DNA from: Sphingomicrobium sp.
GTDB lineage: Bacteria; Pseudomonadota; Alphaproteobacteria; Sphingomonadales; Sphingomonadaceae
Length of the DNA: 64,000 nt
Assembly: GCA_035944075.1 (NCBI GenBank)
Contig: DASZBO010000017.1
Coordinates: forward strand, 13,090-77,089
Direction: 5' to 3'
The notes under the pieces are model-generated. The model was not told where the DNA came from and ran no database searches. It saw only the letters and a list, made by a program, of their open reading frames with translations. Made by a program: the position numbers and the translations under genes. Positions 11,208-35,551 of this stretch are shown in pieces; the stretch's first letter is position 1, and each line of letters opens with the position of its first letter.

Positions 11208-11209
11208 GC

Positions 11210-19101: not shown

Positions 19102-20118
19102 ATGAATGATCCTCGTGTCACCGTTATAATCGTGAATTATCGTACGCCCGATCTTACGTTTAACTGCGTGACTGGGATTCTTGCGGAGCGCAAATCTCTT
19201 CCCGATCTGCGCGTGGTAGTCGTAGATGGAGGCTCGAGCGACGGCTCTGCTTCGCAACTGAAAGATAGGTTATCGGCGCCTGACTTCCGCGAATGGGTCA
19301 GCTTCCTTCCGCTGCCGATCAATGGCGGCTTCGGTTGGGCAAATAATCAGGCGATCCTGACGATTGCCGGCTCGGACAACCCGCCTGAATTCATCCATTT
19401 CCTTAACCCAGATGCCTCAATCCACCCGGACGCGATTCACGCTCTGATTCGAGAATTGCGCGCGCAACCTGACGCCGGGTGCGTCGGAAGTCAGCTTGTC
19501 GACACAGTCGGGAACGATGTGCCTTCCGCATTCCGTTTCCCTTCGGCCGGGCGCGAACTGATTAGCGCCGCTCAATCTACGCGATTGGGAAAGCTGCTGG
19601 GTATTTCATCGGCTGTCGTCGGGGTGTCAGAAAGTGTCGACGTGGATTGGGTGACTGGCGCAAGCTTCATGGTAAGAACGAGCGCGCTTAAGGAAAGTGG
19701 CCTCTTCGACGATGGCTTCTTTTTATACTTCGAGGAAGTAGAGCTTATGCATCGCCTGCACCGTTGTGGCTGGACGGTGCGCCATGTTCCGACAAGCAGG
19801 GTAGTGCATGCAGAGGGGTCGTCCACAGGGATACAGAGGCGCGCTAGCCTTCCCGACTATTGGTATAATTCCCGTCGACGCTATTTTGCTTTAACTGGCG
19901 GGCCAGCCGCTGTGATGCGCGCCAACTTAGCTTGCCTGGCAGGTTTGACTGCCAGGACTGTGAAGATGCCGCTCCGAAAATCTCTGACGGCTCCGGCTGT
20001 TAGTGCAGCTGACCTGTTGCGGTTTAGATTCTGGCCTCGGCGAACCGATGCAATCGCGTCCGCTCCCGCCTGGAAGGATGATCCCGGCAAAGAACCTTTC
20101 TGGATGAGTATACAGTGA
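19102..20118 (+). CDS. Glycosyltransferase family 2
   Basis: VIIVNYRT, VVDGGSSDGS, NGGFGWANN, FLNPDA, DWVTGASF, FFLYFEEVEL. Confidence 0.9.
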   Translation: MNDPRVTVIIVNYRTPDLTFNCVTGILAERKSLPDLRVVVVDGGSSDGSASQLKDRLSAPDFREWVSFLPLPINGGFGWANNQAILTIAGSDNPPEFIHFLNPDASIHPDAIHALIRELRAQPDAGCVGSQLVDTVGNDVPSAFRFPSAGRELISAAQSTRLGKLLGISSAVVGVSESVDVDWVTGASFMVRTSALKESGLFDDGFFLYFEEVELMHRLHRCGWTVRHVPTSRVVHAEGSSTGIQRRASLPDYWYNSRRRYFALTGGPAAVMRANLACLAGLTARTVKMPLRKSLTAPAVSAADLLRFRFWPRRTDAIASAPAWKDDPGKEPFWMSIQ

Positions 20119-21113
20119 CAGATCTCGACGGGATGGCGGCAGTCGTGATTGGCCGGAATGAAGGACTTCGGCTCGAGCCTGCCCTTAAGTCTGTCCAAGG
20201 TGCGGGGCTTCCGTTGGTTTACGTGGATTCCGGGTCGGTCGACGGAAGTCCCCGTCGCGCACGTGAGATGGGCGTCGCCGTCGTTGAGGTTGATCCGCGT
20301 ACCCCGTTTTCCGCGGGTCGGGGCCGCAACGAGGGGCTCCAGGAGGTGCTGAAGCGGTGGCCGAACACGCGCTTCGTCCTTTTCCTGGACGGCGACTGTA
20401 TCCTCGATCCGCGCTTTCCCCCGGCAGCTTTGGGTGCCTTTGACCAGCATGAAGAATGCGCAATTATCACTGGGCACCTCTCAGAACGCTTTCCTGACCG
20501 CTCGGTCTATAACAGGCTCTGCGCGATCGAGTGGCAATCGCCGTCGGGCCTTATGACGAACATGAACAGCCTCGGCGGTATAATGGTCGTGCGTGTTTCC
20601 GCGTTCTTATCGGTGGGTGGATTCAAGCTGCAGGCGATTGCGGGAGAGGAACCCGACTTGGGCTCTCGGCTCATCACGGCTGGTCACACGATCATCAAAG
20701 TCGACGCGCCAATGGCAACACACGACGCCGAAATTCTGAAATTCAGCCAATGGTGGAAAAGGGCCGCTAGAGGCGGACATGCGCTGGCCTTTCGTTACTC
20801 GCAGCACGGACGAACGAATGTACGAGAGACGCGCCGAGAGCTGGCGAGCGACCTCGCGTGGGGCCTGATCTTGCCCGTGTCCCTCATACTCCTGCTCTGG
20901 CCGACGGACGGCCTCTCACTGTTGTTGCTGATCGTATATCCATTATTCGGGTGGCGCATATTCCGGCGACATCGCGCGAATGGCCTCAACTCAGCGGATG
21001 CCCGACTGCTGGCGCGTTACATCGTTTTCGGCAAGTTCGCGCATGTCGTCGGCATCGCGACATATTGTCGCAATCGGCTGCGTGGCGAGTTCCGGATCAT
21101 CGAGTACAAGTGA
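20115..21113 (+). CDS. Glycosyltransferase family 2 with C-terminal TM helices
   Basis: VVIGRNEG, YVDSGSVDGS, FLDGDC, GEEPDL; GTG start overlapping the previous stop. Confidence 0.88.
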   Translation: MTDLDGMAAVVIGRNEGLRLEPALKSVQGAGLPLVYVDSGSVDGSPRRAREMGVAVVEVDPRTPFSAGRGRNEGLQEVLKRWPNTRFVLFLDGDCILDPRFPPAALGAFDQHEECAIITGHLSERFPDRSVYNRLCAIEWQSPSGLMTNMNSLGGIMVVRVSAFLSVGGFKLQAIAGEEPDLGSRLITAGHTIIKVDAPMATHDAEILKFSQWWKRAARGGHALAFRYSQHGRTNVRETRRELASDLAWGLILPVSLILLLWPTDGLSLLLLIVYPLFGWRIFRRHRANGLNSADARLLARYIVFGKFAHVVGIATYCRNRLRGEFRIIEYK

Positions 21114-21128
21114 GGTTCACGATTGTCG

Positions 21129-22229
21129 CTACTCGAATGAGTAGCCGTCGCCCGAATAATGCGTCAGATCCCAATCGGCGACCGCCGTCTTCACGTGATC
21201 GAGTGGATGCCCTTTAGGAGCCTTGAACGTGAAGCTCATTCCGGACCCGAGCGCGACAAATCCGTGTCGTCGTGCGGCGTTCTCAAGCTCCGGGGGCGAC
21301 GTGATGATCTCAAGTAGATCGGCGCTCGTCTCGTCGAAAAGTGCAATGGCTGCCCGTATCAGCGCATCCTGAGACGCTTCCGCCTGCAAATAGCCAAACT
21401 CCATGACCGAAAACATTGAAACGCCCGAATACCGCTCTTTGATCGGGCGCTCGGCTGTGTCCCGTACCCGCCAAAGGAAAAACAGGAGAGGGCGCGCCGA
21501 AGAGTCGCGAACGAGGGCAATTTGATCGCTGTTGCGCGCATTCATCTTCGCCCGGAGGAGTGCTGCATCGTCGCTCCAATGGGCGCGGTCTCCGTATTGA
21601 CGAGGATGCTCGTCTAGCAGCTTCGCGAGCGCGGCAAACCCGATCTGCTCTATGGAATAATTCTTCTTGAAGGACTTCTGACGAAACAAGATTAGCTTTG
21701 CGGACCGGTAACCCAGCCAATAGGTAGAGGATAAGAAGCGGACGAGCGCGCGGCTGCTTAAGTGATGCCGAAGGAATGGAGCTGGATTTCGCAGCAGGCA
21801 CATTCGCGCGGCGGCGCCAACGACTTTGAAACCTAGTTTTCTGTAGAGACGTAGCGCTGGATCCGAAGAGAATGTGCCGCCCCAGACGAAACCTCGCTTG
21901 GCAAATTCTGTAAGTTGATGTTCTATAATCTTTTGCGCGAGCCCTCGGCCGCGGAAGTTAGGATTCGTGAATAGGTTTGCGTTCCAAGCCCATCGATACT
22001 GCTGTTTTTCTCTAAAGAGTATATCGGGAAATGCATTGAGGTACGAAGCGACAACACCGTCCTCCAAAGCATAAAATACGTATGGAAAGTCTGCCGGATA
22101 GTCGATTGCGTCGGCCAGGTAAGGTGTCACGAACTTTGGGTACTGGCAAAGCAGTTCCGGGTGGAGCTCTATTAAATTGTCTCGCTCACTAAACAGGACG
22201 TGTCTTATGCTCACCACTCGAAGCTCCAC
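21129..22229 (-). CDS. GNAT-family N-acyltransferase-like protein
   Basis: LFTNPNFRGRGLA acyl-CoA-binding motif, ALRLYRKLGF. Confidence 0.7.
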   Translation of the reverse strand: MELRVVSIRHVLFSERDNLIELHPELLCQYPKFVTPYLADAIDYPADFPYVFYALEDGVVASYLNAFPDILFREKQQYRWAWNANLFTNPNFRGRGLAQKIIEHQLTEFAKRGFVWGGTFSSDPALRLYRKLGFKVVGAAARMCLLRNPAPFLRHHLSSRALVRFLSSTYWLGYRSAKLILFRQKSFKKNYSIEQIGFAALAKLLDEHPRQYGDRAHWSDDAALLRAKMNARNSDQIALVRDSSARPLLFFLWRVRDTAERPIKERYSGVSMFSVMEFGYLQAEASQDALIRAAIALFDETSADLLEIITSPPELENAARRHGFVALGSGMSFTFKAPKGHPLDHVKTAVADWDLTHYSGDGYSFE

Positions 22230-22314
22230 ATCGCGCGCCGAGGCATCATGCGGCTAACGCCAGAATTGACAAGGCCTGCCCGGCTCGCCCTCGTTTGCTC
22301 GGGATGATGCTGAA

Positions 22315-23043
22315 GTGAAAGGAAAAATTGCGCGAAGACTCGCAAGGTACCTGAACCGTCGCGATGCCGAGCTCGCGGGTCAAACCGCCGTAATCACGTT
22401 CACTTTCGACGACGCCTATTCGGCGGCCTGCAAAATAGGAGCTGGTATTGTTGAGAGCGGCGGTGGGAGAGCAACCTACTATGTCTGCGGTGGTTTTGAT
22501 CGGTCCCCAACCAGTGACCCAAGGTATCACAGTGCAGCTGATCTGCGTTGCTTGCAGGGTAGGGGGCATGAAATTGCCTGCCACGGATATGCCCATTTAA
22601 ACTATCAAGAGACTGGCACGGAGGAGATTCAGCGCGATTTGGATCTAAACGCTCGCTATTTTGAGGAGTGTGAGATCCTGCCGCCTCGCAACTTCGCATA
22701 TCCATTCGGTTGCGTCAGTCCGCGAGTAAAATCTCTCTGTTCCGACCGTTTCCGCTCATTGCGTGGGGTAGAGGCCTCGGTCAATCGACATAGAGTAGAC
22801 TTGTCGCTGCTCAAGTCGGTGCCGTTGTATTCGAGCAGCATCAAACCTGCCGATATTCGTCTTCTTGTGGAGCAAACACGGGACACCCGTAGTTGGCTGA
22901 TATTCTTTGCGCACGATGTGACGAACGCGCCAAATTATTTCGATGTGACGCCCGATCTTCTTTCGTTTGCAGTCACCGAAGCTGTGCGGTGCAATTTGCC
23001 GATATTGTCCATGGACGCCGCGCTCGACTATTACGGGTTGTAG
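22315..23043 (+). CDS. Polysaccharide deacetylase (NodB/CE4-like)
   Basis: TFTFDDAY, EIACHGYAH, FAYPFG. Confidence 0.85.
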   Translation: MKGKIARRLARYLNRRDAELAGQTAVITFTFDDAYSAACKIGAGIVESGGGRATYYVCGGFDRSPTSDPRYHSAADLRCLQGRGHEIACHGYAHLNYQETGTEEIQRDLDLNARYFEECEILPPRNFAYPFGCVSPRVKSLCSDRFRSLRGVEASVNRHRVDLSLLKSVPLYSSSIKPADIRLLVEQTRDTRSWLIFFAHDVTNAPNYFDVTPDLLSFAVTEAVRCNLPILSMDAALDYYGL

Positions 23044-23081
23044 TGGTGCTGCCTGAATTGCGAGGCTGTTCTCCGCGACCT

Positions 23082-23867
23082 CTATCGGCCTTTCCAAATC
23101 GGTGACCGCTTCTCGACGAATGCGCGTGGTCCGTCGGCGAAATCTTCAGTGGAGATAACGCGCTCCTGTGCTTCGTCGGAGAGTTTACGGAGGCTCGCGT
23201 CATCCAGGTCGAGGGCCGCTCGCGCAATGGCTAGGCTCTCGCGAACAGCGATGGGTGCGTTACAGGCGATTTGTGATGCCAGTGCGATCGCGACGGTTAA
23301 GGCTTGACCTTTCGGGACGAGCCGATTGACCATCCCGAACTCGTAAGCTCGTTCAGCGCTGAGACGATTCGCAGTCAAGATGCATTCAATGGCAATCGCC
23401 CGCGGGATAGCTCTCGGCAATCGATAAACTCCACCCGCTGAAGCGATCAGCCCACGAGTCACTTCCGGAAGTCCGAAAAACCCTCCCTCACTTGCGACGA
23501 TAAGATCGCAAGCAAGAGCTAGCTCGCATCCTCCTGCCAAAGCCATTCCCTCGACCGCCGCGATCCAGGGCTTCGATCGCGGGGCATGAACAAATCCGGC
23601 AAGGCCATATGGGCCGCCGATGATTTTCATGAGGTTGCCGTCCGTGACTTCCTTGAGGTCCGCGCCGGATGAGAACGCAATTTGGCCGGCGCCGGTCAGG
23701 ACGACGACCCAGACATCCGCGTCAGCTTCGACATCCCGAACCGCTGCTTCGAACTCTGTTGTGAGTGCCGCATTTATGGCATTGCGGGCTTCAGGCCGGT
23801 TAAGCGTCACGATCGCGACATGGTCGTCCCGTTTGTCAACGAGTACGGCGTTATCCGAAGAGCTCAA
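23082..23867 (-). CDS. Enoyl-CoA hydratase/crotonase-family protein
   Basis: TLNRPEARNAI, FSSGADLK, ALAGGCELALACD, FGLPEV, FVEKRSPIWKGR; GGAG RBS with TTG start. Confidence 0.92.
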   Translation of the reverse strand: MSSSDNAVLVDKRDDHVAIVTLNRPEARNAINAALTTEFEAAVRDVEADADVWVVVLTGAGQIAFSSGADLKEVTDGNLMKIIGGPYGLAGFVHAPRSKPWIAAVEGMALAGGCELALACDLIVASEGGFFGLPEVTRGLIASAGGVYRLPRAIPRAIAIECILTANRLSAERAYEFGMVNRLVPKGQALTVAIALASQIACNAPIAVRESLAIARAALDLDDASLRKLSDEAQERVISTEDFADGPRAFVEKRSPIWKGR

Positions 23868-25153
23868 CGCGCATCTCCCTGCATTTTGGCTTCTCCGGCT
23901 GTTCCCATTCTCTCAGATACAGATTGAGCGATTGCATCATAGAGAGCGGAAGCATTGCGATCTGCGTCATGGAGTCGCAGTACCCGTTCGCGACCAACTA
24001 ACCCCTTGCTTAGGAGGTCCTCCGGAGACGTTTGCAGTGCGCTCGTCATTGCTTGAACGAGATCGGGCACAGACGCTGCCGGTATCAGCCATCCGCAGCG
24101 ATCATCGACGAGTTCCGGAATGCCAGCAATGCACGTAGTAATTACCGGTCGAGCGAGTGCCAGCGCCTCCATCAGCACGACGGGAAGTCCTTCCGCGAAA
24201 CTGGGCAGAATGAATGCTCGAGCTGCCAACAGCAGTTCGCAGATTTCACGCGAGGATTTGATACCGGCAAGTGTCACGCAATCTTGAAGTTGTTGCGCGC
24301 GAATCTTCATCTCGATTTCGCGTTGCAAATCTCCGTAGCCAACGATCGTAAGATGGAATCGCTCGCCGGCGTCACGCAGCTTCGCGCAAGCATCAATTAA
24401 CAGGGGCAAGCCTTTTTGTTGAGACAGCCTGGCTACAGCAACAAAGTTGACCGAAGTTCGGGGTGGCACGGTAGGAGCCGCATTTAGGAACATGGAATCT
24501 ACGCCGCAGCGTACCAATTTGATTTTGTGCCACTGTTGCTCGGGTACCCATCGCATTAGCTGACTTTGGCAGTAGCTGCTAATGGCAGCAACGAAACTTG
24601 CCCGTTCTATCTTGCTTCGAAGCTTTAGCTCAATGGGTGCGTCGAACTCGTCTGGACCGTGGACTGTGAAGCTGAATGGGGGACCTCCCCACGCGCGCAC
24701 TATGGTTGCAATAGCTGCCGGATTGGTGCCGAAGTGCGCGTGTAAGTGCGTCACCTGCAATTGTCTGAGCCGACCGACAAGCCACGCCGCCTCCAGCAGG
24801 TAAACGGTGTATCGTGCCTTTTGTGCAAGGCCCTTGCCCGACAACTCGTAAGCAGTCGCAATCGCAGCGCAGCTCCTCACGGGATGCAACAGTAGCGCAC
24901 GAACGCCGGCTAGGACGAGGCGGAGCCATCCTTGTGCCAGGACTGATTCGGTGCGGGTCGCTTCGCGGATATCGGCGGAGTCTGTGATCTCGCTGTGATA
25001 CGGTCGAAGTGAAAATCGGGAGACTTGGTGTCCTGCCCGTTCCAGAGACTCTATTTCCCGTCGGATAAAGGAGTGGCTAACCGCAGGATAGATGTTGCTC
25101 AGATAGGCTAGGCGCACGCTTACTCCGCTGTCGGTGGTCAAAGCCGCCATCAT
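23864..25153 (-). CDS. Glycosyltransferase family 4 (WcaL-like)
   Basis: YPAVSHSFIRREI, HLHAHFGTNPA, FTVHGPDEF, VARLSQQKGL, SFAEGLPVVLMEA; start uncertain. Confidence 0.9.
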   Translation of the reverse strand: MMAALTTDSGVSVRLAYLSNIYPAVSHSFIRREIESLERAGHQVSRFSLRPYHSEITDSADIREATRTESVLAQGWLRLVLAGVRALLLHPVRSCAAIATAYELSGKGLAQKARYTVYLLEAAWLVGRLRQLQVTHLHAHFGTNPAAIATIVRAWGGPPFSFTVHGPDEFDAPIELKLRSKIERASFVAAISSYCQSQLMRWVPEQQWHKIKLVRCGVDSMFLNAAPTVPPRTSVNFVAVARLSQQKGLPLLIDACAKLRDAGERFHLTIVGYGDLQREIEMKIRAQQLQDCVTLAGIKSSREICELLLAARAFILPSFAEGLPVVLMEALALARPVITTCIAGIPELVDDRCGWLIPAASVPDLVQAMTSALQTSPEDLLSKGLVGRERVLRLHDADRNASALYDAIAQSVSERMGTAGEAKMQGDAR

Positions 25154-25212
25154 AGCAAAACGGCGCACGATGGGAGAGGGATTATGGAGCGGCGAGATGC
25201 GCTCGACGTTTA

Positions 25213-25473
25213 TCAGATGTGCCCGTTCTGGAGCGCTTTCGCAACGAGGTGGGGCTTGTTCCTGGCGTTGAGCTTGTTTCGAAGATTCTCCACGTGACGC
25301 TCAACAGTTCGTGGCGCAATGCCGAGCTGCTGTGCACATTGTTTAGAAGAGAGGCCGCGCGCAATGCACACAAGCACCTCGCGCTCCCGCTCGGATAGGG
25401 TGACAAAATCTTCCTGTTGGCTCGCTAAGTTCACCATCAGCTCCGTAGCCGGAAAAACCCTAAGATGATTCAT
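25213..25473 (-). CDS. Stand-alone LuxR-type HTH regulator
   Basis: LSEREREVL..IARGLSSK..A..LGIAPRTVERHVENLRNKL; no receiver domain; start may be 25527. Confidence 0.85.
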   Translation of the reverse strand: MNHLRVFPATELMVNLASQQEDFVTLSEREREVLVCIARGLSSKQCAQQLGIAPRTVERHVENLRNKLNARNKPHLVAKALQNGHI

Positions 25474-25744
25474 ACCAATACGCCCGGATTGCGCTTCCTT
25501 ACAGTCACTTGGGCTATCCTGTGCCACTTTCGGACAGTGTTCGTTTTAACGCGATCCCAAGGGGCCGCTCACCGCGTCGACCGATATCCCAATTTCCTCT
25601 CGATCAATGGAGCGCGTACCTTAAGTTTTTCCCTGTTTTCCGAAGGAAGTTCCGTCCTCCAAGTAGCACTCGAGCAATAAAGGCGATTAGCCGAGCACCA
25701 TCCTACCTTGATGAATCGCGGCAAACGTCGTCGGATTGCAATTC

Positions 25745-25760
25745 GTTAAAAAATCGTTTA
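25745..25760 (-). promoter_or_regulatory. CtrA-like box (one mismatch)
   Basis: Minus strand TAAA CGATTTT TTAAC, about 120 bp upstream of the PEP-CTERM start at 25880. Confidence 0.5.
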
Positions 25761-25879
25761 TTGAACTGTTCTGCTTCGAATGGTTACGCGTGTACGCGTC
25801 CAGGTGGGAGCGGGGGCAACCCAACACTCCGACAGAAATTGCTGGCCACCGTTGCAATGAGCACCGGAAGGACATTGCT

Positions 25880-26557
25880 ATGGAACGTCTTCTTAAGACG
25901 GCTGTAGCCGCTGCCGCGATGATCGCTATTGCATCACCCGCAGGTGCCGCGATTACTATGACGACCACGACTGGGATGCCGTTATCGTATCAGATTTTCG
26001 GAATTGCCAATGCTTCGGGCAATCCAGTTTATGGCTCGTCGCCCAACAACACCACTGTGCCGAACGTCACGTACACGGGCGACGCGAACATGACCATGGC
26101 AAACGGTTTTGCCCAGCTCAGTGATGCTAATTCAATGAATCCGAGTCTGTTCACGGTCGTGATCAATCCGGACTTGGACTTCAGCCAGATGAAGTTCGCG
26201 ATGCAGCTCGTCAGTGCTGGAACCGCCACCGTTTATTATCTTCTGTCGGGATCGGGTTTGGACGCAAATGCGTTCGCGAGCTATACAACCGCGTCTGCAT
26301 TTTCAGGCAGCTTTGCCCCGGTTTCTTCGGATTCCAAAGATAATAACAATTATCTGGTCAGTGGGGGCACATTCGACGGCATCATGATCCGCTCGACGGC
26401 TCCGATTGAACTCTTCGAAGTAAAACAGAATTCCTACGATCCTGCGCCGGGTGCGGTGCCGGAGCCCGCAACGTGGGTATTCATGCTTCTCGGGTTTGGG
26501 GGCATCGGGATGAATCTCCGCCGGCGCCGAAAAGGCGCGCTTGCGCAAATAGCGTAA
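25880..26557 (+). CDS. PEPxxWA-CTERM surface protein
   Basis: GAAGGA RBS, signal peptide ending ASPAGA, VPEPATWVFMLLGFG-TM-RRRRK..AQIA. Confidence 0.9.
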   Translation: MERLLKTAVAAAAMIAIASPAGAAITMTTTTGMPLSYQIFGIANASGNPVYGSSPNNTTVPNVTYTGDANMTMANGFAQLSDANSMNPSLFTVVINPDLDFSQMKFAMQLVSAGTATVYYLLSGSGLDANAFASYTTASAFSGSFAPVSSDSKDNNNYLVSGGTFDGIMIRSTAPIELFEVKQNSYDPAPGAVPEPATWVFMLLGFGGIGMNLRRRRKGALAQIA

Positions 26558-26581: not shown

Positions 26582-28363
26582 TCAACAGCTGGACTCGATT
26601 GAACCGGAGCGCATGTCCGTCGGTTTGAGTGGGCTCAATTGCCTTTGATCTCTTGAACCACCGCAATCAGTCGATTTTCCTTTCCGGCGCGGGCGTTGTC
26701 GTTCAGAATCCTCGCCGACGAGCAAGGTGCTCGGCTGTGCATCGATGATGAGTGGCGTCGCCGGTTTCGGCGCAGCAGGAGTTGCGTTCCGGTCCTCACC
26801 AGCTTTGGATTGATCGCCCATGAGCTTGTCAGCGAGCTGCTGCCCCTCAGGCGTCTCAGGAATGATGATTGCCGTACCCGGTTCGCGAAAAGGCGGCTCA
26901 GTTCCCGCATAGTGTTGCGAGAAAGCCCGCGCCTCGCCGAATACATTGCGCAATCGATAGAAAATGTGTCGCCCGATCTGCACGCTCTTGTCGAGCGAAT
27001 CTGCCCAATAGGGAAGCACATAGTCGGCATGATAATGGGTCGCGTGACCCACGGGTCCAAAAACCTCGCCCTTCAAAGCTTCTCCCGCGATCTTTTTCGA
27101 GCGGGCCCATAGAGAGGAGACGGGAACACGTTGCATTGACCCGTCGCAGGTGAAGCTGAACTGGCAACCCGTCGGCCGGTCCGCTCCTTCGTAGACAACA
27201 CCGCAGATCGTCGATGGAAAGCCGGGATGTCGGACGCGGTTCAGCACGACCTGCGCTACCGCGCGACCGCCGTCTACGCCTTCGCCTGCGGCTTCATAAT
27301 AAACTGCCTGCGATAGGCAGGTGAGGGCGCGCGCCTGATTATCCGCATCGGTATGGAGGATAAATTTGCGAGCGGGTGTGTCGGGGCGCGTTACAAATGG
27401 CCGCTCGGTATTCTCCTTCGCAGCCTGGTCGGGCGAGAGCGGTTTCAGCAGCCCGGGGGCAGGGAGCGACTGAACTGCAGCGGCACTTTGCGACTGTACG
27501 GGGGGTAGCCAGAGATCGAGCGAAGTCCCGCTTGGTCGTCCGGCCTCAAACGACATGCCCACGTACAGCGCGATTGCGCCGAAGAGCGCGCCGAGAAGCG
27601 AAAGTGGAACGATGCTTCCTGCGTGCGCCTTACCGCGACGCCAGCGCAGCCATAAGGGGAAAATGCGAAGACCGTCTATCATGTAGCGTCGCCACAGCCG
27701 GCGAGGGTTTGAGAGCAATCGATGAGCCCACTCGAGGCCGAGGTTCTGAATGACTTTCGGAGCGCGCTTTTGCTTTCCGGTGATGAAGTCGAGACCGGCG
27801 CCGATGCAAAGTCCCATTCCTGTGGCGGTCGGAAACTCGCGGACTTCTCGCGCGATCATCTCCTGTTGCGGCGATCCGACGGCGATGAAGGCAAAGCGCG
27901 CCTGCGAGCTCGCGATAAATGCTGCGGCTTCGCTTCGCGCACGGGCGTCCGCACGCAGGTTCATGGGCGGCTCGAAGTGCAGGAACTGGGTCTCTGGGAA
28001 TTTCGCTCTCAGTTGCTCCAAACACGCCCGGTCGGCGCCGACGACCGCGATTCGATCCCTGGGTTTTATGATGTCGGTGAAGAGCGTCGCAGAGAGGTCG
28101 CTCCCAGCTACGAGAGGAAGTCTAACGCCCTTCAGGCGCGCGAGGAATTTAAGAACGCGGCTGTCACAAACGCACAAATCCGCACGTTCGTATAGCTCGC
28201 GGAGCTCAGGCTCTCGGTGAACGCGAACAACATGATCGACGTTCGGCGTCACGATATATTCGTAACGCGACGAGACTTTCACAGCTTGCAACCGGTGCTT
28301 GATTTCTGGGAAACTGAGCAGGTCGAAGTGCAGATCGAGGAAATTTACTCGATCAATATGCAT
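26582..28363 (-). CDS. Fusion: WecB/TagA/CpsF glycosyltransferase + TM helix + SleB-type cell-wall hydrolase (Hydrolase_2)
   Basis: N-terminal IVTPNVDH, VAGSDL, VGSPQQE, GLEWAHRLL..PRRLWRRY; C-terminal CLSQAVYYEA..E, VVLNRV, CQFSF, ATHYHADYV, IGRHIFY; single open frame; ATG 28363 overlaps the upstream stop. Confidence 0.85.
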   Translation of the reverse strand: MHIDRVNFLDLHFDLLSFPEIKHRLQAVKVSSRYEYIVTPNVDHVVRVHREPELRELYERADLCVCDSRVLKFLARLKGVRLPLVAGSDLSATLFTDIIKPRDRIAVVGADRACLEQLRAKFPETQFLHFEPPMNLRADARARSEAAAFIASSQARFAFIAVGSPQQEMIAREVREFPTATGMGLCIGAGLDFITGKQKRAPKVIQNLGLEWAHRLLSNPRRLWRRYMIDGLRIFPLWLRWRRGKAHAGSIVPLSLLGALFGAIALYVGMSFEAGRPSGTSLDLWLPPVQSQSAAAVQSLPAPGLLKPLSPDQAAKENTERPFVTRPDTPARKFILHTDADNQARALTCLSQAVYYEAAGEGVDGGRAVAQVVLNRVRHPGFPSTICGVVYEGADRPTGCQFSFTCDGSMQRVPVSSLWARSKKIAGEALKGEVFGPVGHATHYHADYVLPYWADSLDKSVQIGRHIFYRLRNVFGEARAFSQHYAGTEPPFREPGTAIIIPETPEGQQLADKLMGDQSKAGEDRNATPAAPKPATPLIIDAQPSTLLVGEDSERQRPRRKGKSTDCGGSRDQRQLSPLKPTDMRSGSIESSC

Positions 28364-29855
28364 CGGTGTCGAACAAAACTGCGCGCACTGTTGCGATGAG
28401 AATCCATATGTCGAGCCAGAATGACCAGTGATCGACATAATGCTTGTCAAGCTCGACACGGCGCCTGGCCCGTTCGATCGTACGAACTTCGCCGCGGAGG
28501 CCCTTGACCTGGGCATAGCCGGTGATCCCGGGCTTGACCCGGTGGCGGCCCGCATAACCCCGAACCGCCTCGTGGTAGAAACGGTCGCCTACCATCATTT
28601 CCGTACCGTGAGGGCGGGGCCCGACCAACGACATGCTGCCCAAAAGCACGTTGAAGAGCTGGGGAAGCTCATCGACACTGAATCGGCGAAGAAACCGGCC
28701 AACGGGAGTGACCCGCGGGTCATCGCGCGTCGTCGTCTGGCGGGCGCCGACATCCGCCATGTGCGTGTACATCGTCCGGAACTTGAAGACGTTTATCGTT
28801 TCATTGTTGAAGCCGACCCGAGGCTGCACGAAGAGCATCGGACCTGGGCTGCTCAGCCGGACGAGGAGCGCCGTTACAAGGAGGAGCGGCGACAAAACGA
28901 GAAGAGCAAGCGAGCTTAACGCAATGTCTTCCGCCCGTTTAACCACCTGGTTCATGTCACGAAACGGTCGCTGCCATAACGTCAAGACTGGAACGGTCCC
29001 GAGTAAGTTCACGCGATAGTTCGGAGAAAGTTCAACGGCTTGCCGGGGTATCAGCGATACATCTACCGCGACTTCGCTCAGCCCCTCGACGATCTGTTCG
29101 AGACGCTTGGGGCTGAACTTGCTCCCACTGATCAGGACCTGATCCAGTTCTCCCCTCCGCGCCATGTCGCACAGGTTTCGAAGGTCGCCGAGCAGAGGGA
29201 GGTCAGCGATCGGCGTTACGCGAGACCGGTCGTCCGCAATCCCGACGAAGCGCAAATGAGGAAAGTGAAGGGACTCGAGGAGCTGCTTGCTGAGCGCAAC
29301 AGACTCCGGATCAGCCCCGTAAAAAGCGATGCGTTGCTCAATCTGTCCGCGTTGAGCGAGACGAGTGATCAAGCGATTGACCAAGGGGCGAGACACCGAC
29401 AGGAACAGAACGACGCTGATCGTGAAGATGAGCGTGATCCCGCGCGAATAATGCTCGATGAGCCCGGCGAGCCAGATCAGCGCCGAAGCAATGAGGCTGC
29501 TAATAACCGCGTCGAACGTCGTATCGCTGCTATCTCGAAGATCGAGGAGGCTGCGACGATAGGCCTGTCGCGAAATGCGAATGAGCAGGAAACTGCCGAG
29601 CATCAGGATGAATGCGGTGACGTGTACAGATATGATGAGACGCGATCCCCGCAACAACGAATACGTTGCAAGCGTGATCGGCGCACTGACCAAGAAGCAG
29701 AGAATGTCGGCCACAAAGAAAAGTGAGCCGACCACGTTTGAAGTGAATCGAAGCTTCTGCTTTTGTGGCCGGTGGACCTCCGCCACGATCGCGGCCGTTT
29801 CGTCAGGCGCCGGTTCGGCCGATTCCGGCAGAATAGGGTTGTCGTCGATACGCAT
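28353..29855 (-). CDS. Priming undecaprenyl-phosphate sugar phosphotransferase (WcaJ/GelB-like)
   Basis: TM N-terminus, KRAEDI, FKFRTM, DPRVTPVGRFLRRFSVDELPQLFNVL.GSMSLVGPRP, KPGITGYAQV. Confidence 0.93.
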   Translation of the reverse strand: MRIDDNPILPESAEPAPDETAAIVAEVHRPQKQKLRFTSNVVGSLFFVADILCFLVSAPITLATYSLLRGSRLIISVHVTAFILMLGSFLLIRISRQAYRRSLLDLRDSSDTTFDAVISSLIASALIWLAGLIEHYSRGITLIFTISVVLFLSVSRPLVNRLITRLAQRGQIEQRIAFYGADPESVALSKQLLESLHFPHLRFVGIADDRSRVTPIADLPLLGDLRNLCDMARRGELDQVLISGSKFSPKRLEQIVEGLSEVAVDVSLIPRQAVELSPNYRVNLLGTVPVLTLWQRPFRDMNQVVKRAEDIALSSLALLVLSPLLLVTALLVRLSSPGPMLFVQPRVGFNNETINVFKFRTMYTHMADVGARQTTTRDDPRVTPVGRFLRRFSVDELPQLFNVLLGSMSLVGPRPHGTEMMVGDRFYHEAVRGYAGRHRVKPGITGYAQVKGLRGEVRTIERARRRVELDKHYVDHWSFWLDIWILIATVRAVLFDTDAY

Positions 29856-31286
29856 CTAAATGAGCCCCCGCGCGAGTATTGCATCCCGCTGGTGGTCGAA
29901 CTCCTCCTGCAACTCGCGGGTTGCGTCCGCATCTCCCTTTCTTGTCGCTTGCAAAGCGGCGAACAGCCTTTCGTTTGCCGGAATGTCCTGGAACGCGCTC
30001 CACAAGGTGCGATTGACCCAAGCCGAATTTCCCTCGGCTTGATAGGTCCGAGCGAGCAGCAGACGATCTTTTGCTGAGTTTGGCAGCACCGTCGCCAGCT
30101 TCTCCGCATCGACGACCGCCGCTTTTGGCTGGCCGATGCGAAGTTCAAGTTCTGCGCGCGCGCGAAGAGCCGTTGCATTCCCTGGGTCAAACGCAATGAC
30201 GGCATCTAGGCGGCTTTTAGCCGGCCCTGTGTTGCCGATCGTCGCAAGGGCGTCGCCAAGGACTGCGTTGGCCTCGGCGTTCGCGGCGTTAACCGGCAGA
30301 GTTGCCGCTGATGAACTCAATCGAACTGCGTCTGCAGGACTGCCGACCCGACTGAGAAAGCTCGCGTAGGCCAGCCGCGACTGCAGACTTGTCGCTTGAG
30401 CTGCAAGGCTTCGCGCATCATCGATCCGCTGCTGTGAGGGCCAATACTCCTCCCAGAGCTCAAGAACTGAATTTACCAGTGCGGGGGGTGCACCGGTACT
30501 TAGGAGACGTCGTGACGCCGCGCGCGCGACCTCAATGTTGCCTGAACGCAAGCCCGCTTCGATGACGTTGAGTGCGTTCTTTGGATTTGCGGGGGAACGC
30601 TGGTTCAGGCGCTGCGCGACCGCGAGAAGGTTCGGCCAGTTGTCCTCTCGGTCGTATATCTGCGCGAGAAGCTCGAGGCTCCCAACATCTCCCGGCTGCG
30701 CCTCGGTTTGTTTGACGAGCAAATTTCTTGCGTCATCTTCCCGTTTTAACCCGATCAGCGCGCGTGCCTTCAGCGCTGTCGCGCTTGGGTCGTAGGGCGA
30801 GTTTGCGAGTATCGCGTCCGCCGCTGTCAGCGCCTCGTCGAAGTGCAATTCACTAATCGACGACCAGCCCTTGGTCAGTTTGGGCCAAGGATCGCCAGGT
30901 GAAAGGACCTCGAGTTCCTGAGCATGGCTCATGGCCGAAGGTAGATCTCCAGCGCGCAGGGCCAACTGGGTAACGGCACGGAGAACCTCGACGTTGCTCC
31001 GATCGAGTTCGTAGGCACGACTGAAGGCATAATAGGCGTCACTGTAGCTTCCGGTGAACGCCTCGAGCTTGCCGAGTTCCACCCAATAGTCCGGAACATC
31101 ATCCTTGGCCTGGACGAGCTGGAGGAGCGCGCGACGCTCACCCGCAAGATCGTCCGATGCCGTCGCGGTCTGATAGGCGCTGAGTGCGGCGCGCGCGCGC
31201 GCGTCCGACGACCTGCATCCGACCAACAGGCACGCCGCAGATAGGCAAGCGACAATGCGCAGGCTAAGATGCGTTTCAAACCGCAT
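29856..31286 (-). CDS. TPR-repeat lipoprotein (EPS/PEP-CTERM-associated)
   Basis: Lipobox LLVGC; repeated helical TPR-like units; directly abuts the priming transferase. Confidence 0.78.
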   Translation of the reverse strand: MRFETHLSLRIVACLSAACLLVGCRSSDARARAALSAYQTATASDDLAGERRALLQLVQAKDDVPDYWVELGKLEAFTGSYSDAYYAFSRAYELDRSNVEVLRAVTQLALRAGDLPSAMSHAQELEVLSPGDPWPKLTKGWSSISELHFDEALTAADAILANSPYDPSATALKARALIGLKREDDARNLLVKQTEAQPGDVGSLELLAQIYDREDNWPNLLAVAQRLNQRSPANPKNALNVIEAGLRSGNIEVARAASRRLLSTGAPPALVNSVLELWEEYWPSQQRIDDARSLAAQATSLQSRLAYASFLSRVGSPADAVRLSSSAATLPVNAANAEANAVLGDALATIGNTGPAKSRLDAVIAFDPGNATALRARAELELRIGQPKAAVVDAEKLATVLPNSAKDRLLLARTYQAEGNSAWVNRTLWSAFQDIPANERLFAALQATRKGDADATRELQEEFDHQRDAILARGLI

Positions 31287-31409
31287 TAAATCTCAACTCC
31301 AGGGGAAGGGATTATCCTTTCCTCAATTTAACAAGGCAATAGAGTGATAACCCGACTCAGCCTCTGGGGCTTACAGGTCGATGATGAATGTTTCAGAAAG
31401 GGACGCGTA

Positions 31410-32024
31410 GTGATCAAGCGAGCATTGTTGCTCATGATGTGCATTTGGGCTCTCGTGGGTCTCGGCGTCGAGACTGTGGCTCAGGCGCAACTATCAGTTC
31501 CGCCTTCCGCGACGGTCACCGGGACACCTTACCGCATCAATCCGGGGGACGAGCTCGAGATACACGTCTGGGGCGACGAGCGCCTTCAGCGCGACGTGCT
31601 TGTGCTCCCGGACGGGACGTTCGCCTTTCCGCTGGTAGGGCAGGTCAATGCTGCCGGCAGGCTGCCGAGCGAGCTAGAGCGCGTGATCACGGTCGGCCTT
31701 CAGCCGCAGTACAAGGGCCCAGTCCCGCAGGTCACGGTTTCCGTGAAGCGCGCAAGCGGGTACCAGTTCTCGGTCGTCGGAAAGGTGCGAAATCCGGGAA
31801 CTTTCACCCCTGGACGGTACGTTAATGTCCTGGAGGCACTCGCGATCGCCGGAGGACCTTCGGAATTTGCCAATTTGGGGGGAGCTCGCTTGATTAGAAA
31901 AGCTGGAGACCGGATGGTCGTACTTCCAGTCCGGCTACAAGACGCGCTCCGGGGGGACTCAATGAATCTGAGCCCTAATCAGATCCCGCGCATCGAAAGC
32001 GGTGATACGCTGGTGGTTCCCTGA
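31410..32024 (+). CDS. wza: Polysaccharide export protein (Wza/GelD-like, Poly_export + SLBB)
   Basis: YRINPGDELEIHVW, VLPDGTFAFPLVG, VVGKVRNPG, GDTLVVP; GTG start with RBS. Confidence 0.9.
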   Translation: MIKRALLLMMCIWALVGLGVETVAQAQLSVPPSATVTGTPYRINPGDELEIHVWGDERLQRDVLVLPDGTFAFPLVGQVNAAGRLPSELERVITVGLQPQYKGPVPQVTVSVKRASGYQFSVVGKVRNPGTFTPGRYVNVLEALAIAGGPSEFANLGGARLIRKAGDRMVVLPVRLQDALRGDSMNLSPNQIPRIESGDTLVVP

Positions 32025-33298
32025 TGAGTAGCCTGGCTCTGGTCGCGGTTCTCGCCGCTCAAGCGGCAACGCAGACGGGTGCACCTCCGCCCGCTCCTGG
32101 CACAGCCGCAGACGGTACCACGGCACCGACGACGCACGCGGGTCAGTCCACCTACGTGGATCTCGAGGCAGGAGCTGGCTACTCAACCAATCCCGTCCTT
32201 TCGGTCGGCAGCAATTCGGGCTCCGCCTTTGGCCGGCTCTCGGCCCATGCGGTGCATACCCGAACCACTGATCGGACGACCACCGTTGTATCTGGATTTG
32301 CGCAAAGTGTCTTCTACACGAACGGCTTAAATTCAGCGCAATCGTTTGATCTTAACGGAAGACACCAAGCTGCCGTTAATGAAAAGTTGCGCCTCTTCGT
32401 GGACGGCGATTTTGCCTTCGATCGGGGAGGGCAACTCGATACGCGGATCCTCAGCGTTCCCGATTTATCTCTTTTGTCGGGGTCGACCGTCCCACCTGCT
32501 CAGTTCGCGCGGGGAAGCGATTTCCTGAGTGTCACGGGCAAGACGTATCGCGCCGGCGCCCACATCGGTGGACAGCTCGTTCTGGGTCCTCGAGATAGCT
32601 TCGATTTCTCTACTGGTATCGATCATAGCACCTTCAGGAACGGCCTCTTTGATACCCGTTCCACGACCATACCCGCATCAATCGGCTACGACCGGCAACT
32701 GAACGAGCGCACCTCCGTGGGAACTCGAGTGGTTGCGCAGTTCACGCATTACAGTGGAGTCATTCTCAACGGCGCGCGCAACTTTCGCGTGATTACGCCG
32801 GACGTTACCGGGCAAATCCGACTCTCCGAGAAACTGAAGTTTAGCGGCGATGTCGGCGTGTCCTTCTCGTCTGTTGACGACGGCCTTCTTACAAGGCACT
32901 CGACCGGAGTTACCGCAGATGCGAACCTATGCTCCGCAACTGAGCGCACGCAATTTTGTGGCCAACTATCACTTCAGCAGCAGGCTGCCACATCTGTAGG
33001 CCCTGCGCGGGTCATGAGCGCCGGGATGGATTATTCAAGGCGCCTTGGCTCAAGTGATACGATCCAGTTTTCGTTGAGTGCTGTTCGATATTCGAACCCT
33101 ATTCTAGTTGTGGCTGTACCGAGCTTCGCCCACGCAACCTATGTGCGGGTCGCCGCTGATTACTCACGAAAAGTGGGAAACCGATTGTACGGTGGCGTGG
33201 ACCTAGCAGCTCGTAAAATTACCCAACACGGGCCGGGGCCGGACACGGACCTTAGCGCCGCGGTATTCATCCGATATCGGCTTGGTGACGTCGAATAA
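32024..33298 (+). CDS. Putative outer-membrane beta-barrel of the EPS export operon
   Basis: Signal peptide, amphipathic strand pattern, terminal VFIRYRL; lies between wza and wzc. Confidence 0.7.
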   Translation: MSSLALVAVLAAQAATQTGAPPPAPGTAADGTTAPTTHAGQSTYVDLEAGAGYSTNPVLSVGSNSGSAFGRLSAHAVHTRTTDRTTTVVSGFAQSVFYTNGLNSAQSFDLNGRHQAAVNEKLRLFVDGDFAFDRGGQLDTRILSVPDLSLLSGSTVPPAQFARGSDFLSVTGKTYRAGAHIGGQLVLGPRDSFDFSTGIDHSTFRNGLFDTRSTTIPASIGYDRQLNERTSVGTRVVAQFTHYSGVILNGARNFRVITPDVTGQIRLSEKLKFSGDVGVSFSSVDDGLLTRHSTGVTADANLCSATERTQFCGQLSLQQQAATSVGPARVMSAGMDYSRRLGSSDTIQFSLSAVRYSNPILVVAVPSFAHATYVRVAADYSRKVGNRLYGGVDLAARKITQHGPGPDTDLSAAVFIRYRLGDVE

Positions 33299-34725
33299 TG
33301 GAACCTGAGATAATTGATCGCGGCGCCCCTGCGCCGACCTGGATGGTAAACCATCTACCCGTTATACTATGGCAGCGGCGTTACTACGTGCTTGTCTGCC
33401 TTATTGCGTTCGTTGCGGCGGCGGCGATTGCCGCATTTTCGCTCCCAACAACCTATCGTTCAACGGCGACGTTGCTCGTCCAGTCCCAGGATTTGCCCAC
33501 CACGCTTGTCGATGCGCCGACCAATGGTGCTATCGAACAGCGTATCGCCCGGATCCGCGAAAAAGTTCTGAGCCGTGGTGACCTTATTCAGCTGATCGAA
33601 CAGGAAGATCTATACATCAAGCAGCGACGGTCGCAGCCTCTGTCAAAGATCATCGAGGAGATGCGTCACTCAACGAGCGTCGGTGCCCTGTCGAGCGACA
33701 TCGGACAGCAGTCGGGTACACAAAACAACACCGTCGCCCTCGCAATGAGTTTCGACTATCCAGACCCGGTAAAGGCCCAAGCCGTCTTGCAGAGTTTTGT
33801 CACCAAATTTCTGAATATGGATAATGCCGATGTTGAAGATCAAGCAAACCTTACGGTGCGCTTCCTTCAGGATCAGGCGACTAAGCTTCAGACTCAGATC
33901 TCGGATATTGAGGCCCAGCTTACCACTCTCAAAGCGCGCAATGGATCGGCCTTGGCCAGTAATGGCGGTTCTCAACTAATTGATACCGGAAGCTTCAGCG
34001 CACAGATCACTGCTCTCCAAAACGAAAACCGGCAACTGATTGCGCAGAGCCGGCACCCCGCTCAGCGAAACGATGCTCTTGCGTCCGCCGAAGCTGCGCT
34101 AGCAGCCGCGCAATCCCAATATAGCGATACGCACCCCGACGTAATCGCCGCAAAGGAGCGAGTTGCGCAGCTCCGTCGCATGACCCAGAACTCCGGTGGC
34201 GACAGTACGACCCAGGAGCAGATTGCTGCAAATAACGCTGCAATCCATCAGCTGATGGATCAGCGCGACGCGACGCTGGCTCGTGCGAACGCAGCGACAG
34301 CGGGACAGGCAAGGGCGCCGGCGATTGAAGAGCAGGCCATGCAGCTCGAGAACCGCGCCAACACTCTTCGAACCCAATATCAGCAGATTTCAGAAAATCT
34401 CCTCAAGGCTCAGAACAGTGCGAGGATGGCCTCGGAGCAGCGCGCTGAACACCTCTCGCTCGTTGAGCCGGCCAATCTTCCGGATCGTCCCTTTTCACCC
34501 AATCGGCCGTTGTACATTGCGGCCGGCGCGGCTGCCGGGCTCGGTCTTGGGCTCCTCCTTGCGCTTGGGCTCGAAATTCTTAATCGACCGGTGCGGAGCC
34601 CACGGCAGATCCAGGACATGGGCTATCCAATGATCGGGGTCGTACCTCTTTTGAAAACCAAGACGAAAGCTCGTTCGGGACGTTTTCCCGCCTTCTTCTC
34701 GCGGGAGAAACGCATTGCAGCCTAG
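33298..34725 (+). CDS. Polysaccharide co-polymerase/chain-length determinant (Wzc N-terminal part, GumC/GelC-like)
   Basis: TM..YRSTATLLV, coiled coil, YSDTHPDV, VEPANLPDRPFSPNR-TM, IGVVP. Confidence 0.9.
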   Translation: MEPEIIDRGAPAPTWMVNHLPVILWQRRYYVLVCLIAFVAAAAIAAFSLPTTYRSTATLLVQSQDLPTTLVDAPTNGAIEQRIARIREKVLSRGDLIQLIEQEDLYIKQRRSQPLSKIIEEMRHSTSVGALSSDIGQQSGTQNNTVALAMSFDYPDPVKAQAVLQSFVTKFLNMDNADVEDQANLTVRFLQDQATKLQTQISDIEAQLTTLKARNGSALASNGGSQLIDTGSFSAQITALQNENRQLIAQSRHPAQRNDALASAEAALAAAQSQYSDTHPDVIAAKERVAQLRRMTQNSGGDSTTQEQIAANNAAIHQLMDQRDATLARANAATAGQARAPAIEEQAMQLENRANTLRTQYQQISENLLKAQNSARMASEQRAEHLSLVEPANLPDRPFSPNRPLYIAAGAAAGLGLGLLLALGLEILNRPVRSPRQIQDMGYPMIGVVPLLKTKTKARSGRFPAFFSREKRIAA

Positions 34726-35551
34726 CTCATTAGACGCAGTCCCGGACCGAACCGGGGATCTGAGGGAGGTTAGGACCACGCCGATATTCCCCAGTCGCGG
34801 TCAGGCGACCGAAATCGCTTGGAGTGGTGCGGCCTCCCGGCGACGCCTTGTCCATGGTTTTGACAGCCGCAACGCGAGTTCACGGAGCTTCAATCTGATC
34901 CGATCCAAGCTCGCCACGCTGCGCCGCGAGCGCGGCTGGCGGATGCTTGGCGTTGCGTCGGCCACGCCGAATGTCGGCAAGTCCTTTGTTTCGGCGAATC
35001 TGGCCGCCGCTATGAGCCGCGATCCGAGGCTCCAAACCTACCTCCTTGACCTCGATTTGAGGCGTGGAACGATCAAAGACATATTCGGGATCGAACCGGA
35101 CACGAGCATCGTCGAATATTTCGAAGGTACGCACCCGGGCGAAGTGCTTCGGGGTTATGTCCCGCAAGGCCAGGATCTGGTCATCATCCCTAGCATCACT
35201 GCCGAGGTTCATTCCGCTGAATTGCTTGCGAGTGATCGGGCGCAGGCGCTGTTTCGTGCGATGCACAATTCCGACAAGCGGAATTACTTTATCTGTGATC
35301 TTCCACCGGTGTTCGCGAACGACGATGCGTCCATCATCATGGAAGCCCTCGACGGTTATCTGATTGTTGCGCAGGACGGGAAAACGACCCAGCGCGAGAT
35401 CGAGGCAACGGTCAACATGCTTGGCCATGAGCGCCTCGCTGGAGTCGTCCTCAACAAGTATCGAGGAGGTCTGGTCAGCGAGGGCTATGGCGTCGAGGAA
35501 CGCTACGCGAGCGAATATTACGCGCGTTCATCCGAAGAATCGGACAACTAA
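34715..35551 (+). CDS. CpsD/CapB BY-kinase (split Wzc cytoplasmic domain)
   Basis: Walker A TPNVGKS, LLDLDLRR, ICDLPP, C-terminal Tyr cluster GYG..RY..EYY. Confidence 0.9.
   Translation: MQPSSLDAVPDRTGDLREVRTTPIFPSRGQATEIAWSGAASRRRLVHGFDSRNASSRSFNLIRSKLATLRRERGWRMLGVASATPNVGKSFVSANLAAAMSRDPRLQTYLLDLDLRRGTIKDIFGIEPDTSIVEYFEGTHPGEVLRGYVPQGQDLVIIPSITAEVHSAELLASDRAQALFRAMHNSDKRNYFICDLPPVFANDDASIIMEALDGYLIVAQDGKTTQREIEATVNMLGHERLAGVVLNKYRGGLVSEGYGVEERYASEYYARSSEESDN

Follow-up and report, generated by a model that had tools for sequence, protein, structure and literature searches.

Introduction

Lytic enzymes dedicated to flagella, and to type III and type IV secretion systems, are known. The passage of large polysaccharide export and sorting complexes through the peptidoglycan mesh is a standing question. 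As far as we found or know, no dedicated wall-lytic factor has been described for Wza/polysaccharide co-polymerase (PCP)-type or exosortase systems. Here, we analyse a gene that provides a concrete candidate. The gene is in a 64,000-nucleotide stretch of DNA from Sphingomicrobium sp. (hereafter, the window) and belongs to an exopolysaccharide locus. It encodes a single protein in which a family 26 glycosyltransferase (GT26) is joined, via a transmembrane (TM) helix, to a SleB/CwlJ-fold (Hydrolase_2) domain. Note that databases already hold such fused proteins, named only as WecB/TagA/CpsF glycosyltransferases. This name hides half of the protein. The finding likely to last, we infer, is that one exopolysaccharide locus has a dedicated wall-cutting enzyme, for which fusion is an optional state; this is a testable lead.

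Both halves of the protein have described relatives. Known GT26 enzymes include TagA/TarA (wall teichoic acid), WecG (enterobacterial common antigen), GumM (xanthan), and HfsJ (Caulobacter holdfast). In the GumD/GumM and HfsE/HfsJ pairs, as at our locus, a priming transferase is partnered by a GT26 enzyme. The window protein resembles these transferases in having a complete PF03808 domain, the Thr/Asp pair, a GSPQQE motif, and a C-terminal appendage. Unlike them, it is not a soluble or peripheral protein of ~240–260 residues. Instead, the appendage runs into a TM helix and a 320-residue extension, predicted to be periplasmic. The extension is similar to SleB and CwlJ in its catalytic fold and in having a glutamate within a Y-x-E-x-x-G-E motif. 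It differs from SleB in being TM-anchored, in lacking an N-terminal PG_binding_1 domain, and in carrying ~12 extra residues that include cysteines (TGCQFSFTCDGS). Furthermore, the window organism does not sporulate and hence has no delta-lactam cortex substrate.

The closest functional parallels are the FlgJ muramidase domain, VirB1, EtgA, and PleA/SltF. Like these, the window hydrolase is encoded in, and co-occurs with, the locus of the machine that it would serve. The lytic module of FlgJ is fused to another component in some lineages, and separate in others, which is the plasticity that we describe below. A VirB-type operon is also found in the same window as the hydrolase locus. However, the window hydrolase has a Hydrolase_2 fold, rather than a GH73 or SLT fold, and is partnered with a biosynthetic enzyme on the cytoplasmic side of the membrane instead of a structural protein in the periplasm. 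In the literature, we found no report of an exopolysaccharide locus with a Hydrolase_2 protein. The sole mention of an alphaproteobacterial SleB fold that we found concerns an uncharacterised gene-transfer-agent gene of Rhodobacter.

Results

A single reading frame encodes a transferase and a hydrolase

An earlier note on this DNA, made from the sequence alone, described a fusion gene at positions 26582 to 28363. The coordinates are right and the gene is on the minus strand, as are all features below unless stated. It runs from 28363 to 26582, with the stop codon at 26584..26582, and encodes 593 amino acids (protein P0001). Homologues match the product in N-terminus and length. As the note had stated, the frame is unbroken; translation and the junction sequence agree. 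The region 27520–27700 is free of stops, and the only nearby in-frame ATG codons are those of M228, where the GT domain ends, and M270, past the helix. According to the note, the start also overlaps the stop codon of the priming transferase gene upstream. Read directly, the start ATG (28363–28361) and the stop of the priming gene (28355–28353) delimit 11 nucleotides in common (28353..28363; ATGCATATTGA). A longer open reading frame, from an ATG at 28555, is also present. However, the aligned N-termini of 23 homologues all coincide with the ATG at 28363.

Residues 1–245 (27629..28363) comprise the GT26 (WecG/TagA/CpsF) module, including a TagA-like C-terminal appendage. The assignment draws on Pfam, NCBIfam, alignment to TagA, and AlphaFold2 (AF2), and the module is predicted to be cytoplasmic. 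The Pfam core, PF03808 (Glyco_tran_WecG), occupies residues 61–227 (E 2e-36; 125.6 bits against a cut-off of 27.4). The match spans the full profile (1–168 of 168), so the domain is complete, as had been claimed. The score for TIGR00696 (92.4 bits against a cut-off of 69) represents agreement at superfamily level. Named GT26 equivalogs are far below cut-off: EpsA (NF041872, 114 against 500), WecG (NF002980, 79 against 323), and TarA (NF041710, 64 against 350). By these profile scores, the module belongs to a known superfamily but to no characterised equivalog.

Residues 29–227 align to TagA (structure 7mpk; also 5wb4), which places T39 opposite Thr37 and D67 opposite Asp65. From TagA structural work, we take Asp65 to be a catalytic residue. 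The D67 codon (28163..28165) is in a CDSR motif that aligns to 'VPDGS' of 7mpk. Both T39 and D67 are invariant in 24 fused homologues, 49–70% identical to the window protein, as are the motifs TPNVDH, CDSR, and GSPQQE. The appendage is evident from alignment of residues 196–227 to TagA 195–226 and from AF2 helices at residues 203–243. When the full protein was modelled with 24 close homologues, the predicted local distance difference test (pLDDT) score for the GT domain was ~90, a helix was placed at residues 248–270, and the hydrolase domain was poorly resolved. Overlap with the priming transferase gene provides context for a putative role in sugar transfer to an undecaprenyl-diphosphate-linked acceptor.

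The hydrophobic helix reported previously corresponds to residues 251–269 (IVPLSLLGALFGAIALYVG; 27557..27613). This is the top Kyte-Doolittle 19-mer of the protein (2.09), the sole segment to reach 1.5, and coincides with the AF2 helix. A hydrophobic 19-mer is present at the equivalent place in 24 of 24 fused homologues; the helix sequence itself is not conserved. In all 24, the N-terminal flank of the helix is basic (two to six K+R residues, usually three to six) and acidic residues are nearly absent. The GT half should be on the cytoplasmic side, because a nucleotide-sugar transferase needs the cytoplasm. Together, these properties suggest an N-in/C-out topology, in line with the single bitopic protein envisaged earlier, with GT26 and Hydrolase_2 on the N and C sides of one helix. 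Cysteines on the C side (four invariant or near-invariant in the domain and two in the tail) are weak support for this topology, because three invariant cysteines also occur in the GT domain. We considered release of the hydrolase by signal peptidase after the helix. This was rejected since the alignment has no conserved AxA-type site past the helix.

The predicted periplasmic linker (residues 270–344; 27332..27556) has a variable first part. This is followed by a conserved LPxPxLLxPLxPEEAxKENAERPF segment that packs on the catalytic domain in the model (AF2 pLDDT 86–97 from about residue 305). The Hydrolase_2 catalytic domain covers residues 345–472 (26948..27331). PF07486 matches residues 360–469 (E 3.5e-26; 92.2 bits against 27) over its full profile (1–100 of 100), and SleB structures 4f55 and 4fet are phmmer matches of the C-terminal half. 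We also modelled residues 296–593 with 99 sequences. Here, pLDDT is 86–98 over residues ~305–495, so that the catalytic domain is resolved, and the tail is unstructured. Compared using Foldseek, this model matches 4f55 and 4fet with TM-scores of 0.77–0.80 (probability 1.0), and these are the only matches with E < 1e-3. The predicted catalytic glutamate is E357 (codon 27293..27295). It is the glutamate of the YYEA motif picked out in the earlier note (YYEAAGE in full), aligns with 'YGESRGE' of SleB, and is invariant in 99 of 99 aligned sequences, which include locus-linked forms and housekeeping paralogues. Note that TIGR02869, which describes SleB proper, scores 53.7 bits against a cut-off of 236.5, PG_binding_1 has no match, and the host is a sphingomonad. 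The score below cut-off indicates a superfamily member rather than a SleB orthologue. The label of lytic transglycosylase, applied in the earlier note, is thus a putative one taken from SleB homology.

Residues 473–593 (26585..26947) form a C-terminal tail, delineated by alignment, paralogue comparison, and AF2, that occurs in locus-linked hydrolases only. In fused homologues, it has conserved motifs, and two of its cysteines never vary: C567 and C593, the final residue. The tail, with its cysteine pair, is a candidate docking element for the export/sorting apparatus. The two cysteines (26585–26665) are invariant in what is otherwise a poorly conserved, low-confidence region. A myxosortase-type C-terminal sorting signal was considered and rejected, since C593 is the last residue and no hydrophobic helix or basic cluster follows.

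We conclude that the gene encodes a GT26 domain, a single TM helix at residues 251–269, and a SleB-fold Hydrolase_2 domain, with catalytic residues T39, D67, and E357 intact. Judged from its sequence, this is a real bitopic inner-membrane protein.

Fusion is an optional state

In a large protein collection, the fused two-domain protein recurs far more often than chance would allow: independent clusters at 90% identity number at least 120 (585–597 amino acids; 50–70% identical). These were drawn from JGI, ENA, Logan, and NCBI assemblies, and each has precomputed PF07486 and PF03808 matches. Hence, the combination of WecG/TagA and Hydrolase_2 domains, for which the earlier note had advised an architecture search, is recurrent. 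A search of 50%-identity representatives yielded one full-length fused representative among 150 matches listed, and no fusions from other phyla there. The architecture therefore seems confined to one narrow family.

These data bear on whether the single frame is an assembly or sequencing error, in a genome that truly has two genes. Relatives at species level are mostly split, a one-nucleotide error would suffice, and the assembly is in 139 contigs. However, the closest relatives in our tree, P0002, P0013, P0003, and P0005 (61–70% identity), are all fused in the same junction register, and alignment to the closest, P0002, requires one single-residue gap only at the junction. Given also the many independent fused clusters, the frame is probably not an artefact, and we regard such an error as very improbable.

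We then examined reading frames at loci from a scan of one genome per species; the loci came from Sphingomicrobium and Sphingomonas. Three states were evident: fused, split, and hydrolase-only. A fused single open reading frame is present in four other species genomes, all metagenome-assembled (MAGs; L015, L016, L017, and L019). Most genomes are split, including the complete genome of cultured Sphingomonas sediminicola DSM 18106. Further split carriers are S. daechungensis, S. humi, S. arenae, S. rhizophila, and strain LHG3443-2. In the split state, a 250-residue transferase stops just past a conserved RW motif and the hydrolase starts in another frame. In nine loci, including those of DSM 18106 and S. 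arenae, the ATG, GTG, or TTG start codon of the hydrolase overlaps the transferase stop as NTGA (4 nucleotides). This is a classic arrangement that implies translational coupling. Locus L018 has an in-frame stop between the two parts. Finally, at loci L020–L023 and L025, and also in genome G003, the hydrolase gene directly follows the priming transferase gene, with no GT26 gene between. A single PF03808 gene is present in each genome tested. Where the locus is hydrolase-only, this gene is of a different, higher-scoring type and lies on the opposite strand of the locus, at a distance of 7–10 kb. Hence, the transferase step has been displaced and the hydrolase kept.

Across the genus, we searched 271 species genomes and identified the hydrolase in ~46. 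Five are fused, ~31 are split into genes with an NTGA overlap, one has the in-frame stop, and six to nine are hydrolase-only. According to the earlier note, separate genes in all close relatives would indicate a recent, accidental loss of a stop codon. While ~31 of ~46 carriers are indeed split, the fused clade has members 50–70% identical to each other, so this is not a recent accident. Since the transferase is split off, or replaced, in sister lineages, covalent coupling is not required for the job of the pair. We conclude that fusion is a lineage-specific, optional state and that the covalent link is dispensable.

Some individual cases deserve mention. Genome G068, a complete single contig, has the hydrolase and a truncated GT26 (residues 54–247) at G068:C1:1073903-1075590 and no exosortase match at E <= 1e-40; this locus may be decaying. 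Locus L024 (MAG contig JAEWEY010000010.1, 10001–11829) has a split pair with a TTGA overlap, nested in an otherwise fused clade, and is either a fused-to-split reversion or an assembly frameshift. Other domain combinations also occur. At the N-terminus of P0211 (579 residues), a methyltransferase-like match that is weak and sub-threshold (E 3e-4) precedes Hydrolase_2 at the equivalent position. In P0217 (731 residues), GT26 is joined to a GT4 transferase and, in P0139, P0147, and P0203, Hydrolase_2 is joined to DUF4932.

The hydrolase is a fixed component of one exosortase locus subtype

Orthologues of the exosortase V (XrtV) encoded in the window (at least 53% identity) occur in ~45 of the 271 genomes. 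The hydrolase is found in ~46, and both are present in ~40 (hand count). Genomes with XrtV but not the hydrolase are mostly cases of contig edges or incomplete MAGs. The linked hydrolase was found in none of ~20 genomes that have a more distant exosortase type (35–48% identity). On direct inspection of two of the same genus with another exosortase type, G009 and G024, we saw no GT-hydrolase pair in that position. Furthermore, the ~25 long loci all have the same gene order, irrespective of how the pair is arranged: XrtV-EpsI-PPIase, kinase-PCP-unk424-Wza, and TPR-PHPT-[GT]-hydrolase. We conclude that the hydrolase is a fixed component of one XrtV locus subtype, with near one-to-one co-occurrence.

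In the window, the fusion gene is the last of a three-gene run on the same strand. The run begins with a tetratricopeptide repeat (TPR) protein gene (29856..31286), weakly PrsT-like by its TPR matches in Pfam and a partial match to TIGR02917. In all long loci that we inspected, it directly precedes the priming transferase gene. The latter (28353..29855) encodes a WcaJ-like polyprenyl-phosphate hexose-1-phosphate transferase (PHPT; PF02397 E 2e-63; TIGR03025 384 bits against 296). Four plus-strand export genes diverge from the run (31344..35551), with synteny kept in ~25 loci. According to Pfam and NCBIfam, they include a Wza-like exporter (31344–32024), a PCP chain-length determinant (33298–34725), and a tyrosine autokinase (34715–35551). 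The fourth, recognised by synteny, encodes a conserved 424-residue protein with no Pfam or NCBIfam match (32024–33298). An open reading frame of this kind occupies the same position in all long loci, with 30–56% identity, and its product is a candidate envelope component of the XrtV locus.

On the minus strand, beyond the export genes, are an EpsD-type peptidyl-prolyl isomerase (PPIase) gene (35555–36652), a type V EpsI gene (36733–37425; NF045608, 259 bits against 228), and the XrtV gene (37422–38318; NF035943, 352 bits against 313). The models for EpsI and XrtV are NCBIfam exception models, and TIGR02925 also matches in this three-gene stretch. Downstream of the fusion gene, and convergent with it, a plus-strand gene (25736..26557) encodes a protein with a PEPxxWA-CTERM sorting signal (NF035944, 41.7 bits against 35; PF07589). 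This is presumed to be the XrtV substrate. Hence, XrtV, type V EpsI, and a PEPxxWA-CTERM protein, all above cut-off, identify the locus as an XrtV/PEPxxWA-CTERM system. The Wza/Wzc setting proposed in the earlier note is correct insofar as a Wza-like exporter, and a PCP/tyrosine-kinase pair, are present. However, this is not a plain capsule locus.

A housekeeping paralogue has nearly the same conserved catalytic positions

The genome containing the window also encodes a housekeeping paralogue, C114 (375 residues), 50% identical to the locus-linked hydrolase. The layout is the same: a short cytoplasmic tail, a TM helix, a Pro-rich linker, the catalytic domain, and a C-terminal tail. Unlike the linked gene, C114 is in another genomic context and is found in most genomes of the genus (211 of 271 at E <= 1e-60), most of which do not have the locus. 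Its tail is unrelated to that of the linked clade and has no cysteine; paralogue matches end before the tail. Hence, the tail, from about residue 490 to residue 593, is the feature that distinguishes the linked hydrolases. None of the genomes and loci examined had the paralogue fused to GT26. Note that three further Hydrolase_2 genes are present in the same genome.

A maximum likelihood tree of 106 hydrolase parts, from a quick IQ-TREE search, places locus-linked hydrolases and the housekeeping paralogue in separate clades (SH-aLRT 97 on each side). Basal lineages of the linked clade are split. A clade of 32 (SH-aLRT 95) contains the window sequence, most fused sequences, a single split form, and all five that are hydrolase-only. 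L016/P0117, a second fused pair, falls elsewhere. Branches with good support require that the fused label changed three times or more. Hence, the states are labile: either fusion occurred at least twice, or it occurred once and was followed by reversions. In the lineage of the window, the fusion is old, with members down to ~50% identity.

We compared the two clades across 128 catalytic-domain columns. In 58 columns, the same residue is at least 90% conserved in both; only one column is conserved but different. Near identity of the conserved columns argues for the same class of substrate for the linked hydrolase and the paralogue. Given a near-ubiquitous, bitopic, periplasmic enzyme with a lysozyme fold, that shared substrate would most simply be peptidoglycan.

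Discussion

From the observed architecture, conserved residues, evolutionary states, and co-occurrence, we propose a model in which topology, substrates, and physiological role are all predictions. The GT26 module (residues 1–245) would add an early sugar, probably the second, onto the undecaprenyl-diphosphate-sugar from the adjacent PHPT. Positioned directly after the TagA-like appendage, the helix would fix the transferase at the membrane and lead the remaining chain into the periplasm. There, the SleB-fold domain, using E357, could cut glycan strands of peptidoglycan locally. Its likely job would be wall remodelling around the Wza-like/PCP export and sorting machinery. The flexible, subfamily-specific 120-residue tail is the best candidate for docking the hydrolase to this apparatus.

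The hydrolase may have originated by duplication of a near-ubiquitous membrane-anchored wall hydrolase and then become fixed in one XrtV/PEPxxWA-CTERM locus. Two genes with an NTGA overlap were the ancestral state, and a small frame-restoring change merged them in the clade of the window. Topology did not stand in the way, since a cytoplasmic tail and a signal-anchor helix were already present at the N-terminus of the hydrolase. This is also a clean example of a signal-anchored periplasmic enzyme absorbing an upstream cytoplasmic enzyme, with no topological conflict. The covalent link may provide 1:1 stoichiometry and co-localisation but would not be essential. We give an even chance to this account as a whole, in which an early transferase is tethered to an enzyme that cuts peptidoglycan in the periplasm on behalf of the export machinery. 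It is possible, if rather doubtful, that the cleaver is dedicated to the Wza/PCP-plus-exosortase locus and hard-wired to the transferase, in one clade, so that the wall opens only at sites of polymer synthesis.

Opening of peptidoglycan for the conduit was first suggested in the earlier note. Co-occurrence, and a catalytic site conserved with that of the paralogue, strengthen the suggestion, but several points weigh against it. We found no paper on any member of this GT26-Hydrolase_2 pair in a literature search. SleB itself requires a muramic-delta-lactam cortex that is absent from Gram-negative walls. Hence, any bond assigned to proteobacterial Hydrolase_2 proteins is a putative one. Confidence in the AF2 model of the tail is low from about residue 520 (the last ~70 residues). 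The ~25 loci used to assess synteny were picked via the hydrolase, which is why the 271 genomes were also searched with the exosortase. That census relied on tblastn thresholds, and a hand count from the match table, with incomplete MAGs included. In the census, exosortase loci of other families in the order do not have such a hydrolase, so there is no general requirement for one in exosortase or Wza-type export. Finally, all three states (fused, split, and unlinked) have persisted, so selection may be indifferent to fusion itself.

Two other explanations must be considered. The Hydrolase_2 domain might act on the exopolysaccharide of the locus, rather than peptidoglycan, to control chain length, release the polymer, or clear stalled chains. 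AlgL, PslG, BcsZ, and PgaB have glycanase-type roles in other exopolysaccharide systems, and polymer-cutting enzymes are common fixed members of such loci. GT26 enzymes often build beta-linked N-acetylhexosamine units, which look like lysozyme-type substrates, the locus has polysaccharide deacetylase and GNAT acetyltransferase genes, and the hydrolase subfamily has its own tail and its own clade. However, its catalytic positions are near-identical to those of a paralogue found in genomes that lack the locus. Furthermore, the hydrolase stays while the set of GTs varies; the linked GT26 can be replaced and downstream GTs differ between loci. A polymer-specific enzyme should co-vary with the GT set. 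We think that cleavage of the exopolysaccharide is quite unlikely. The hydrolase could, alternatively, be a general wall-turnover paralogue at the end of an operon, fused neutrally and with no functional tie to polysaccharide export. Persistence of all arrangements fits this, as does the presence of three further Hydrolase_2 genes in the genome. Other N-terminal fusions to the signal-anchored hydrolase, such as P0211, suggest that mergers are easy. Such a bystander should not, however, track a single XrtV subtype almost one-to-one across 271 genomes, nor hold its place after the PHPT gene where the GT has been lost. The conserved subfamily-specific tail, with two invariant cysteines, and maintenance as a separate clade beside the housekeeping copy, also count against this explanation. 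We consider a neutral passenger unlikely.

If local wall cleavage for export is correct, the hydrolase would be the first dedicated wall-remodelling factor for Wza/PCP-plus-exosortase polysaccharide export machinery. The loci also provide a natural experiment, in which the same enzyme is fused to a transferase, overlaps it, or is kilobases from a replacement. Cultured carriers of the split state, suitable for genetics, include Sphingomonas sediminicola DSM 18106 and S. daechungensis JCM 17887.

Genes flanking the locus

The variable part of the locus is at window positions 18056–25527. This encodes a 2-oxoglutarate-Fe(II) (2OG-Fe(II)) oxygenase, two GT2 enzymes, the GNAT acetyltransferase and polysaccharide deacetylase mentioned above, an enoyl-CoA hydratase, an EpsE-like GT4, and a 104-residue LuxR-type regulator. 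Of these, the regulator and the GT4 have counterparts with 57–89% identity in related loci. Adjoining the polysaccharide locus is what would be a second envelope-spanning machine with a lytic enzyme of its own: on the plus strand, at 11171–17939, are VirB-type type IV secretion genes for VirB4/TrbE, VirB6/TrbL, VirB9/CagX, VirB10/TrbI, and the VirB11 ATPase.

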